The notes under the pieces were generated by a model that did not search any database, was not told where the DNA came from, and saw only the letters and a program-made list of their open reading frames with translations. Shown one piece after another: positions 51,396-54,538 of a DNA stretch of 64,000 nt (position 1 is the first letter of the stretch; each line of letters starts with the position of its first letter). The stretch is from an uncultured Verrucomicrobiae bacterium. Its GTDB lineage: Bacteria > Verrucomicrobiota > Verrucomicrobiia > Chthoniobacterales > UBA10450. The translations under genes were made by a program, and so were the position numbers. The stretch covers positions 1,248,001 through 1,312,000 of the forward strand of contig CAVYXA010000001.1 of assembly GCA_963772365.1 (NCBI GenBank), given 5' to 3'.

Positions 51396-53068
51396 AATAC
51401 ATTTTCGTCACCGGTGGCGTAGTCAGTTCTCTGGGCAAAGGTCTCACCGCGGCGTCGCTCGGCACTTTGCTCGAAGCCCGCGGGCTGCGCGTTGTGATCC
51501 AAAAATTCGATCCGTATCTCAATGTCGATCCCGGAACGATGAACCCGTTCCAGCATGGCGAAGTTTACGTGCTCAATGACGGCGCGGAGACTGATCTCGA
51601 TCTTGGCCATTATGAGCGCTTCACCAATTGCGTCCTGTCCCGTCACAATAATCTCACCAGTGGCCAGGTTTACGAAACCGTGATCAACAAGGAACGGCGA
51701 GGCGATTACCTGGGCAAAACCGTGCAGGTGATTCCGCATGTGACCGATGAGATCAAGAACCGCATCCGCGAGCTTTCCGACGAAACCAAATACGATGTCG
51801 TTGTTACCGAGATCGGCGGAACCACTGGCGACATCGAAGGCCTGCCGTTTTTGGAAGCGATCCGGCAATTCATTCTCGAAGTCGGCGCGCAAAACGTGGT
51901 TAATATGCACGTCACGCTTGTGCCCTACATCAAAGCTGCGGCCGAATTGAAAACCAAACCGACCCAGCAAAGTGTGGCCAAGCTGCGCGAGATCGGATTG
52001 CAACCGCAGATCCTCATTTGCCGGACCGAGAAACCACTCGACGCTGAAATGCGACGGAAATTGTCGATGTTCTGCAGCGTTTCTGAAAAAGCGGTGATCG
52101 AAGAGCGCGATGTCGAGCACACCATTTACGAAGTGCCGTTGACCCTCCACGCCGAAGGACTCGATCAACTGGTGTGCGATCTGTTAGGCCTGAAAACACC
52201 CGAGCCCGATCTCGCCAGTTGGAAACAGTTCGTCAAACGCGTCATCAGCCCGAAGAAGCGGGTCAGGATCGCCGTCGTCGGCAAATACATGGAGGTGCGC
52301 GACGCCTACAAAAGCATTTACGAATCGCTCACCCACGCCGCCGCCAGCGAAGATTGCGGGATCGATCTGGAGCTGATCGATGCCGAAGCGTTTCAGGATG
52401 GTGTCGAAGACGAATTGAAAGATATCGCCGGCGTTTTGATTCCCGGTGGATTCGGGGCTCGTGGCGTCGAAGGAAAAATTAAGGCCGCCGAATTCGCCAG
52501 GGAGCGCAACATTCCCTATCTCGGTCTTTGTCTTGGGATGCAGGTGGCCACGATCGAGTTTGCCCGAAATGCCTGCGGGATCAAAGGCGCTAACAGCACC
52601 GAGTTCGACAAAAACACGAAGGAACCTGTCATTTCGCTTTTGGAAGAACAACGGGGAGTAAAGAACATGGGCGCCAGCATGCGACTCGGCACCTGGCCTA
52701 CCAAGATCGTCCAAGGCACGCTCGCCGAAAAAATTTACGGTCAACCCGAGGTCATGGAACGCCACCGGCACCGGTATGAGTTCAACATGAACTATCGCGA
52801 CCGGATGGCGGAGAAAGGCTTCGTCATTTCCGGCACCTCGCCCGACGGCACCCTGGCAGAGTTAATTGAACTCCGGGATCATCCCTACTTCATCGGCTGC
52901 CAATATCACCCTGAGTTCCAGAGCAAACCGAACAAACCGCACCCGCTTTTCAGAGGATTCATCCACGCCTGTCTCGCGTATCGAGAGGAAGCAGGCCGGG
53001 GCGATCGTCGGATTAGACGCCAAAATGGAGTCTTAAATGACGCCATTTTGGCGCCGATATCTCGTTAG
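51392..53068 (+). CDS. pyrG: CTP synthase; last ~19 codons run through an attI-like site
   Basis: [42 protein letters not shown]. Confidence 0.98.
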
Positions 53069-53070
53069 GC
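53009..53070 (+). mobile_element. Second attI-like site (no adjacent integrase)
   Basis: 62 bp collinear with attI 1436-1375: CGGATTAGAC..TTAAATG..GCCGAWWTCTCGTTAG; followed by cassette-like DNA. Confidence 0.75.
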
Positions 53071-53083
53071 CACTAAGAGAGCT

Positions 53084-53533
53084 ATGACCGAAAAAGAACT
53101 TGCAGTTCGACTAGTGCGGCACGGGATCGCGACACAGCGACGAACGCCGAATGAACATGCCGAGGCGAACCAAGATGCGGAAGTTAAGGCATCCGGCAAC
53201 GCCGCCACAGCTAACGCTCTTGAGTTCCTCGGCAAGCACTCTGTAGTCGCGGACGTTCAGCCCACTTTCGGCAGCGCCGGTATTGGTTTCGCCTACACGA
53301 TTGCTCCGCAGTTCGTCCAAGAGCTTACCACGGACGACGCGATAGATTCCCGCATTGAGGTACTTTTTAGTGACCCGAAGACCGAGACTGGCGACACCAT
53401 CCACGCACTATCGAGCGGTTGCGAGCGTCAAGCAGGCTGGCCTGAAGTACTGATCACATGCGATACGCCATTGTCCTTGAGCGCGGGCCCACAAGCTACG
53501 GAGCGTATGTGCCGGATCTGCCGGGTTGCGTAG
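53084..53533 (+). pseudogene. Cassette ORF, probably 3'-truncated and fused to a hicA remnant
   Basis: ATG 13 nt after the core; last ~25 codons overlap hicB out of frame; an alternative frame at 53430-53453 reads KQAGLKY*. Confidence 0.5.
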
Positions 53534-53673
53534 CAGCGGCGGAGACGCGCGACGAGGCGCTTCGCCTAATCCGCGAGGCGATCGAGTTCCATATCGAGGA
53601 GATGGAGGCAGATGGCATTGCTGTTCCGGAGCCAGCATCGAGCGCCGAGTATGTTGAGATCGCCAAGGCCTAA
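53458..53673 (+). CDS. hicB: HicB family antitoxin (cassette-borne)
   Basis: YAIVLE..SYGAYVPDLPGCVAAAETRDEA..IREAIEFHIE..VPEP; stop TAA lies in attC R'' (GCCTAAC). Confidence 0.88.
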   Translation: MRYAIVLERGPTSYGAYVPDLPGCVAAAETRDEALRLIREAIEFHIEEMEADGIAVPEPASSAEYVEIAKA

Positions 53674-53882
53674 CCATCCAATGGAGTGAACCCCAAAAGC
53701 ATTCGGGCTGTACTCTCCACTTGTGAGATGACTTCCAAACTTCCACTCCGAGCCACGCATGCTCTCGCTCGGATTGTATCCGAGGCCTCGGCTTCCCTGG
53801 TGCGACTCGCCGCTTCGCGCTCGCGCACCCCCGACGTATTGTTATTCAACGGTGGCCGTCGCTCATCTTGTTCTCGTTAGAT
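53668..53882 (+). mobile_element. Long attC site (215 bp), same family as the integron attCs
   Basis: R'' GCCTAAC, R' GTTAGAT; right arm GCCGTCGCTCATCTTGTTCTCGTTAGA identical to attC 260-383; shared loop GAGATG.CTTCCA..CTTCCACTCCGAGC. Confidence 0.85.
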
Positions 53883-53885
53883 CCC

Positions 53886-54386
53886 ATGCGTACCTCGTTC
53901 GTGATTACAATGATCCTCCTCGCAGCCTTGCATTCCGCGGCCGCCTACGAACGCGTAATCGCTCCGAACGGACTTCTCGAAGCTTTCACTACAGCAAAGA
54001 AGCCGGATGGAACAGGTATGAAGCTTTTCGTGCGCAACCGCCGCTCAAACGCCCCAGCCGTCCTGCTTCTCCAAAATGACCGCTGGATTGACGCAAAATG
54101 GTCGCCGGACTCTCGCTTCCTGGCCGTTATCGACCATCCCTACGGTCACGTAGCGGATGTTTACGTTTTCGGCATCAGCGCCGCTAACTCGGCTCGACCG
54201 CCAATCGCAAACCTTTTTTACCACACACCCGAGCTGCGGACGCATTACGTTCAATGGGATGTTGTCGATTGGCTGTTGAACACGCGCAATATCATCCTGA
54301 AAAAGAACGTGCACTTCGGCTTTCGACAGGAGACTATTGTCGCGCACATCGGCACCTCCGCATTGAAAGCCCCGGCGCCGGACTAG
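53886..54386 (+). CDS. Cassette-borne secreted protein (beta-strand rich, WSPDS motif)
   Basis: Signal peptide; ATG 3 nt after the attC core; followed by a possible attC stub CTAGACCAAGCGTTGAAGC. Confidence 0.75.
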   Translation: MRTSFVITMILLAALHSAAAYERVIAPNGLLEAFTTAKKPDGTGMKLFVRNRRSNAPAVLLLQNDRWIDAKWSPDSRFLAVIDHPYGHVADVYVFGISAANSARPPIANLFYHTPELRTHYVQWDVVDWLLNTRNIILKKNVHFGFRQETIVAHIGTSALKAPAPD

Positions 54387-54538
54387 ACCAAGCGTTGAAG
54401 CTTGTATCCTCTTAAAATGCCCTATCCGTGCCTGAGCTTTTTTTGCCTCAGCACCATTTAACCGCGAAAGCTTCGCGCGTTGATCAATGCCGTTCAGTGC
54501 GGAAGAGGAACCGGAAAGCTTACGAGATAGCGCCGGAA

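Follow-up and report, generated by a model that had tools for sequence, protein, structure and literature searches.

An attI site without a neighbouring integrase at the 3' end of pyrG in a Chthoniobacterales genome, and its counterparts across the family

Several kinds of integron array lacking an integrase gene (intI) have been described, and they form the background to an attachment site, attI, found at the 3' end of pyrG in an uncultured Verrucomicrobiae bacterium of the order Chthoniobacterales (GCA_963772365.1, here G000; the 64,000-nt stretch analysed, positions 1,248,001 to 1,312,000 of contig CAVYXA010000001.1, is referred to as the window). Clusters of attC sites lacking integrases (CALINs) are attC cassettes with no intI nearby; the available text of Cury et al. 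2016 (PMC4889954) gives intI loss as one proposed origin, treats attI as unknown, and as not searchable, for most integrons and describes the expression of CALINs as unknown. Single attC sites lacking integrases (SALINs) are defined by the absence of any further att site and originate from insertions into attG, according to the accessible part of bioRxiv 10.1101/2022.09.11.507474. ORF-11 of attI1, as presented in the accessible sections of PMC8876359, is a short open reading frame (ORF) over attI that takes its stop, usually TAG, from the incoming core and aids translation of the first cassette. In Xanthomonas, integrons lie beside a housekeeping gene, ilvD, at one ancestral locus, with frequent intI inactivation and with CALINs at recurring loci; the available text of that report (bioRxiv 10.1101/2025.06.18.660453) states that mobilisation in trans is possible and that the intI-less arrays are largely frozen, and it mentions no attI at the CALINs. 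The diversity of attI is treated in PMC3146285, likewise available in part. CALINs, SALINs, intI-deleted integrons and ORF-11 are already known. A literature search with most subscription papers and supplements outside its scope returned no paper dealing with attI of Chthoniobacterales or Udaeobacter, with secondary attI or with attI leaders fused to host genes, and within the same scope no description of the present attI family or of orphan attI as a majority state.

The pyrG site occupies window positions 53009..53070 (+) and was recognized by motif search, by a hidden Markov model (HMM) and by alignment. It consists of a GGATTAGAC box, a palindromic arm, TTAAAT, a second palindromic arm, an L-like box, a TCTC spacer and the core GTTAGGC (53064-53070), which lies 15 nt ahead of the cassette ATG; the crossover would fall between 53064 and 53065. 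The L box departs slightly from consensus, and an inverse L box is combined with a GTTRRRY core. The motif CGGATTAGAC-N12-16-TTAAATG was found exactly twice in the window, at 1405-1436 (minus) and 53009-53039 (plus), a count reached by 0/100 shuffles. A genome-wide scan, suggested in the first-pass annotation of this DNA, again gave exactly two occurrences in 3.35 Mb, and a fuzzy pattern did likewise. The other occurrence belongs to the attI of the resident complete integron (1375..1436, −). As that annotation had stated, the two sites are collinear and equal in length, both being 62 bp and aligning without gaps at 39/62 identical positions, though the pyrG site is no copy of the resident one: its candidate explanation as a duplicate was rejected, the resident attI being only rank 45/101 by similarity. 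The intI-linked site L384 of genome G070, whose IntI belongs to the resident IntI's clade (70% identical), matches at 51/62 positions. With the pyrG sites withheld from training, an HMM built from 88 family sites gave the site 40.7 bits, the top match on the reversed genome reaching 12.8 bits; the resident attI, which was in the training set, scored 63.1 bits. Conserved ATTAG and TTAAA boxes and a 23-nt repeat offset are possible accessory, core-like direct repeats upstream of the simple site, to which IntI may bind, and the site folds with a z-score of −5.0. A search of the window against Rfam gave no match. Sequence comparison thus confirms 53009..53070 as a genuine attI of a Chthoniobacterales (Candidatus Udaeobacter-like) integron family without an adjoining intI. 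The absence of intI near pyrG had been asserted from the outset and is correct: no intI or intI scrap was found within 3 kb upstream, and the only intact intI lies 52 kb away. The locus consequently lacks the pairing of attI with an adjacent intI that defines a complete integron.

The essential pyrG gene (CTP synthase; 51392..53068, +; TIGR00337) is native-like to about position 53002, and its final 18-19 codons are those of an attI leader. Translation bears out the claim that the pyrG frame crosses the whole site and ends at the TAG (53066-53068) inside the core, and the accompanying arithmetic, that an incoming core supplies a TRR codon and three of the four possible codons are stops, is right. 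The leader of the G070 site ends in RIRRQNGAFKYAILASTSR, and the C-terminus of PyrG matches it; PyrG is on this evidence fused to an attI leader. The frame thereby has the ORF-11 arrangement of an ORF that crosses attI and ends at the core TAG, and the position of the stop carries meaning because attI of the family have a conserved leader ORF ending at the same place.

This leader was evident from counts made over mutually related sites. An upstream ATG in frame with the core TAG was present at 57/102 sites; the other two frames gave 0 and 3, and a shuffle null over the same 102 sites had a mean of 13.8 and a maximum of 27. By class, the ATG was found at 9/11 sites with full intI, 7/8 with partial intI, 34/76 orphans and 7/7 with short flanks. 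A second set of 20 loci was chosen by intI rather than by motif (one lacks a core, and a few overlap the first set); here the leader was present in 17/19 and an ATG in the other frames in 0/19. The distance from start to stop was 87, 99, 102, 105 or 108 nt, the frame always being kept. Among the 90 sites with a cassette ATG no more than 60 nt past the TAG, the median distance is 5 nt, so short that a ribosome-binding site would hardly fit; at 73/102 sites the ATG of the first cassette comes within 20 nt. It should be added that the leader ATG shares bases with the intI start, and promoter geometry therefore fixes part of the pattern. Like ORF-11 as described in the accessible sections of PMC8876359, the family leader crosses attI and ends at the core TAG; unlike ORF-11 it is unrelated in sequence, spans about 28-35 codons and has a start overlapping that of intI. 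A further difference is that orphan leaders are supplied by a host gene, which is either fused to them in frame, as at pyrG, or overlaps their start with its stop, as at thiG and nuoC. Translational coupling has been demonstrated for ORF-11, and by analogy may operate through the leader of this family.

A loose attI pattern gave matches in 88/355 family genomes (reversed control, 4), whereas IntI was detected at E ≤ 1e-70 in 177/355. Flanks were read for 103 distinct site contexts, a subset of all matches: 11 adjoin a full intI, 8 a partial one, 76 have none within 1.2-3 kb and 8 have too little flanking DNA. Attachment sites of the attC type lie behind 71 of the 89 sites with sufficient downstream DNA, and behind none of the reversed controls. 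The partial genes are N-terminal scraps, one of which keeps both ends, and for one partial-intI context (G100) an identical counterpart carries the full gene. Complete integrons adjoin many different genes, and at two loci both complete and orphan versions exist, next to a tetratricopeptide repeat (TPR) gene (L395/L058) and a GDSL gene (L393/L055). Among the 76 orphans, 21 keep a CAT at −33 to −50 and 30 keep a CAA(G/C) box, corresponding to the intI start and its promoter side. From these sequence remnants, the most likely origin of the orphans is deletion of intI followed by retention of the attI. Same-strand attC were seen upstream of the site in 8/103 contexts, and in G349 a second attI lies downstream of the four attC of a complete integron.

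Some further features of the family sites were recorded. Extra attI also occur inside or downstream of other arrays (L125/L380 in G349:C8, L110 in G017:C2, L115 in G009:C1 and L127 in G012:C8), some of these second attI being near-duplicates 2-8 kb apart. In L096 (G219) and L104 (G287), intI is co-oriented with the cassettes and ends about 40 nt before a 54-55-nt attI. Alignment of 71 sites of 57 nt showed covariation of the two inner arms, most strongly as an inverted repeat about TTTAAA and also as two local palindromes and as a 23-nt direct repeat; this covariation, computed across related sites, could reflect either a hairpin requirement or palindrome-correcting mutation.

The closest parallels to the pyrG arrangement were found at thiG and nuoC. 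A search for thiG within one genus covered 108 genomes, of which 88 gave a match; 87 loci were read, 83 of them with enough downstream DNA. An attI lies 5-14 nt from the thiG stop in 19/83 genomes, with intI there in none, and the attI-bearing genomes are scattered on the tree such that at least six changes are forced. A start codon overlapping the thiG stop, in the forms ATGA, GTGA, TTGA or TAATG, is present in 13/19 attI-bearing loci and in 4/64 attI-less ones, and reaches the core TAG in 6; a seventh apparent case was discarded, its anchor being a mutated core. The first inserts at the 19 sites are of at least ten kinds, and the same cassette was found at different positions. At nuoC the overlap occurs in 2/3 sites, and one empty site stands beside two filled ones. 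Relatives therefore do have orphan attI whose first cassettes differ at a single host locus, implying, as far as comparison of the loci can tell, a cassette traffic that would be served in trans. Two candidate observations were discarded: the nuoC sites are not inside the nuo operon, the next gene being convergent, and thiG locus L073 is not an empty site, as a permease gene comes first. The latter belongs to a recurrent 2.4-kb gene, unusually large for a cassette, which closes many thiG arrays at their distal end and in some cases comes straight after attI (L070, L073, L077, L123, L291, L305, L306, L326, L329, L347, L359); we take it to be ABC-permease-like from its N-terminus. In most thiG loci without attI (L292-L319), varied palindromic repeat elements stand right behind the stop.

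At pyrG itself 190 loci were gathered, some of them duplicates, of which 187 were readable (genomes G008, G014, G105, G216 and G217 enter the tallies of this census and the 355-genome counts only, and no key claim rests on them). The sua5 end lies within 450 nt of the QYHPEF motif in 159 loci, often overlapping the pyrG tail. An attI with attC was found at pyrG only in G000 and in G001 of the same genus (L232 repeats G001). Relatives with intI between pyrG and the site, which would have marked a simple deletion relic, did not appear among the 187 readable loci (0/187). In G001 the site is found 125 nt past the stop of pyrG; an in-frame ATG of its own is present, two unrelated cassettes follow it, and the intI of this genome is 440 kb away. 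The G001 site belongs to another IntI clade and is unfused; conservation of the fusion, seen in one genome, is unsupported. A common origin of the two sites was compatible with the pyrG tree (approximately unbiased test, p-AU 0.48), in which they form a polytomy with the attI-less L211, L137 and L169. Since their IntI clades differ and their flanks have nothing in common, we favour independent arrival or replacement. The pyrG/sua5 junction would so have been used twice, or one platform would have replaced another, with the fusion specific to G000. Among the remaining loci, the C-terminal PyrG tail of many relatives (RRVPEQELVLQR type) is an antisense reading of the sua5 3' end (L002-L015, L130-L289), other tails run into palindromic repeats resembling repetitive extragenic palindromes, and unrelated inserts occupy the junction in several cases (L003, L137, L259).

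The array behind the G000 site begins with ORF1 (53084..53533, +), which starts 15 nt past the core TAG. Its homologs are mostly 240-259 aa, and similarity breaks off near residue 114 (about 53425); by this comparison ORF1 is internally deleted. It is fused to a HicB-like antitoxin gene (53458..53673, +; PF15919, 53.3 bits) that stands without a full hicA, and so the deletion removed the attC of ORF1 along with half of that ORF, and probably the greater part of a hicA. A short remnant ending in KQAGLK (53430-53450) may be a HicA C-terminus; a search for a comparator to this remnant found none. A family attC follows (53668..53882, +), unusually long at 211 nt, although the main array holds a similar one. 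Its minimum-energy fold leaves the R boxes unpaired, and an initial view of the site as broken was softened, the R-box-paired fold costing just 1.0 kcal/mol versus 0-0.9 kcal/mol for ten other attC of G000. The second cassette ORF (53886..54386, +; 166 aa) is full length relative to homologs that are up to 89% identical. Neither cassette ORF nor its homologs scored above the cut-off for any Pfam family. After this last ORF the attC HMM gave no match, and no complete terminal attC was found, only a possible stub with an inverse-core-like start (54382..54401, +). Cassette ORFs and a same-family attC do follow the site, as had been described, but with a single recognisable attC, a truncated ORF1 and an incomplete attC for the last ORF.

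With cassettes and no intI nearby, and with an IntI elsewhere that may act on them, the locus is like a CALIN in the sense of the available text of PMC4889954; unlike a CALIN, it keeps an identifiable attI, and its one recognisable attC falls short of the defining minimum of two. It is like a SALIN in having a single attC far from intI, and unlike one in that a full attI of the intI-linked type heads the array. By definition the pyrG locus is neither CALIN nor SALIN. The retained attI makes cassette gain as well as loss possible in principle. The family also differs from the Xanthomonas integrons in that complete integrons lie at many loci and orphan attI differ in their first cassette.

In combination, these observations lead us to regard the pyrG locus, with slightly better than even confidence, as a retained, host-driven dock left after loss of intI. 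An integron of the resident IntI's clade, though a different member of it, would have landed at the tail-to-tail pyrG/sua5 junction and subsequently lost intI, its promoter and the leader start, in a deletion that left pyrG fused in frame to the leader. Ribosomes translating pyrG would then cross attI, stop at the core TAG and re-initiate on the first cassette, here 15 nt on, and the hldE-gmhB-kdsB-pyrG transcript would replace the lost cassette promoter. The hldE-kinase, gmhB and kdsB genes (49033..51395, +) are spaced by +24, −4 and −4 nt and form a probable operon with pyrG, judging by this spacing; a promoter and terminator scan of 48800-54700 gave chance-level counts, and no prediction fell in the stretch from the pyrG stop to the first ATG. 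More generally, deletions that leave the leader connected to a host gene would keep the first cassette expressed, and orphan attI would represent a temporary, family-wide state in which an IntI encoded elsewhere exchanges cassettes until the site decays. The deletion origin at pyrG, the co-transcription, the translational coupling and the service in trans are what we infer from the arrangement. Where the first-pass annotation had weighed a second capture platform against a relic, a genuine intI-less attI is present and the two options are not exclusive, but current activity of this array is unsupported, its first cassette being deleted and its terminal attC missing.

Several points weigh against this reading. 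Read-through into attI was seen in one genome, a fusion would fall in this frame one time in three, and PyrG tails vary freely (29-57 residues after QYHPEF), which makes a fusion cheap. Compared with the family, the site in G000 shows a one-base shift around TTAAA, at a T run, and the adjacent sua5, purE and aroK are frameshifted; a single-base error is accordingly possible. Besides being unfused and assigned to another IntI clade, the G001 site matches L418, which belongs to a more distant clade, exactly over a run of 27 nt. The array behind pyrG itself shows loss in ORF1/hicA and at its end. At family level, the pattern-based census favours intact sites and the clade fitting the pattern; many orphan sites are decayed, including about 7/19 at thiG, and only 34/76 orphans keep the ATG leader (47 with GTG/TTG). 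The p-value of 9e-8 for the thiG junction is overstated because that junction is probably one ancestral event, and the pyrG, thiG and nuoC loci are all tail-to-tail junctions, where co-orientation with the host gene is automatic and was therefore dropped as evidence.

A wider claim, that Chthoniobacterales run a distributed integron in which one IntI serves several docks selected for their wiring into housekeeping genes (the pyrG fusion and the thiG and nuoC overlaps, all involving the conserved leader), so that the host gene would transcribe and translate every new cassette, with the pyrG site live, is put forward tentatively and at clearly less than even confidence. If it were true, the integron capacity of an abundant soil lineage would be spread over several host operons instead of one locus. 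The questions touched are the origin of integrase-less clusters, their expression and their continued gain of cassettes; the family offers a searchable attI consensus, most attI read here being without intI, and suggests a route of expression through host genes and an ORF-11-like leader that needs no neighbouring integrase.

Somewhat unlikely, in our estimate, is that the locus is an inert relic, with intI lost, the array frozen and eroding, and a chance fusion tolerated because the PyrG tail is unconstrained. The modal length, both end boxes and the open frame retained at pyrG are not what such erosion would predict, and a start codon has been retained at the thiG junctions despite variation among ATG, GTG, TTG and TAATG. 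Moreover, at least ten first inserts start at the crossover of one intI-less junction (thiG), a nuoC site is empty, and an IntI is required for cassettes to be gained or lost precisely; an inert locus would require the cassette differences among relatives to predate intI loss or to reflect horizontal replacement, which we similarly consider doubtful. It is nonetheless consistent with the deleted first cassette and missing terminal attC, with a fusion confined to one genome, with decayed thiG sites, three of which (L290, L291, L306) share one frozen first cassette, and with an HMM score at pyrG below that of the resident site. It also agrees with the thiG sample, in which intI was present in the genome for 8/12 intact and 3/7 decayed sites, small numbers that give no clear signal of a link.

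The occurrence of attI inside or behind other arrays (the 8/103 contexts with upstream attC and the G349 case), the lack of intI scraps at either pyrG site and the arrival of two attI clades at the same junction would fit an attI that came without intI, carried by a cassette or a piece of an array that entered a secondary site resembling attG, so that no integrase was ever present here. We regard this as improbable, given that many orphans keep the intI start, promoter-side sequence or intI scraps and that no attC precedes the pyrG site; in addition, attI1 did not insert into genomes according to the accessible part of Loot et al. (bioRxiv 10.1101/2022.09.11.507474). An assembly artefact, whether a chimeric junction or an indel creating the read-through, is very improbable: single-copy genes just downstream are frameshifted, the exact PyrG is known from one contig and the one-base shift falls at a T run, but synteny with relatives holds on both sides of the site (pyrG then sua5), an attI array lies at this junction in a second genome too, the sequence is distinct from that of the resident attI, no damage is seen in pyrG, kdsB or the last cassette ORF, and the corrected site would have the rare length of 58 nt (3/102 family sites, against 78/102 at 57 nt).

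The resident integron retains the complete arrangement. Its intI (1474..2463, +; TIGR02249, 485 bits, cut-off 265) is the only full intI found in G000, in addition to one broken copy on contig C2, and the protein aligns over residues 18-328 to IntI4 (PDB 2A3V, E 8e-89). The gene stands head to head with its attI, whose leader ORF of 32 codons (1377..1475, −) runs from an ATG that overlaps the start codon of intI to the core TAG. The catalytic motifs match those of IntI4, with the residue roles being those we assume for the family. The first cassette of this integron (758-1366, −) gave a weak, sub-cut-off HEPN (RiboL-PSP) match (E 0.004), and its product is possibly a defence nuclease.

Four other arrays in G000 have attI-like heads of a second spacer type, with TATA or TCTA before GTTAG (C1:822471-822534(+), C2:14223-14282(+), C3:~766240-766310(+) and C2:~48612(−)); one adjoins the broken intI on C2, and in 3/4 a frame opened by ATG closes at the core TAG. 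Downstream of the pyrG array, the convergent host gene sua5/tsaC (54539..55560, −), purE and aroK are each frameshifted within 54539-56690, with no second copy found, and these frameshifts are probably local assembly errors. Elsewhere in the window, a hemB-like ORF of 552 aa (41868-43526, +) matches porphobilinogen synthase only over residues 3-326, as would result from an extension, a fusion or a lost stop.

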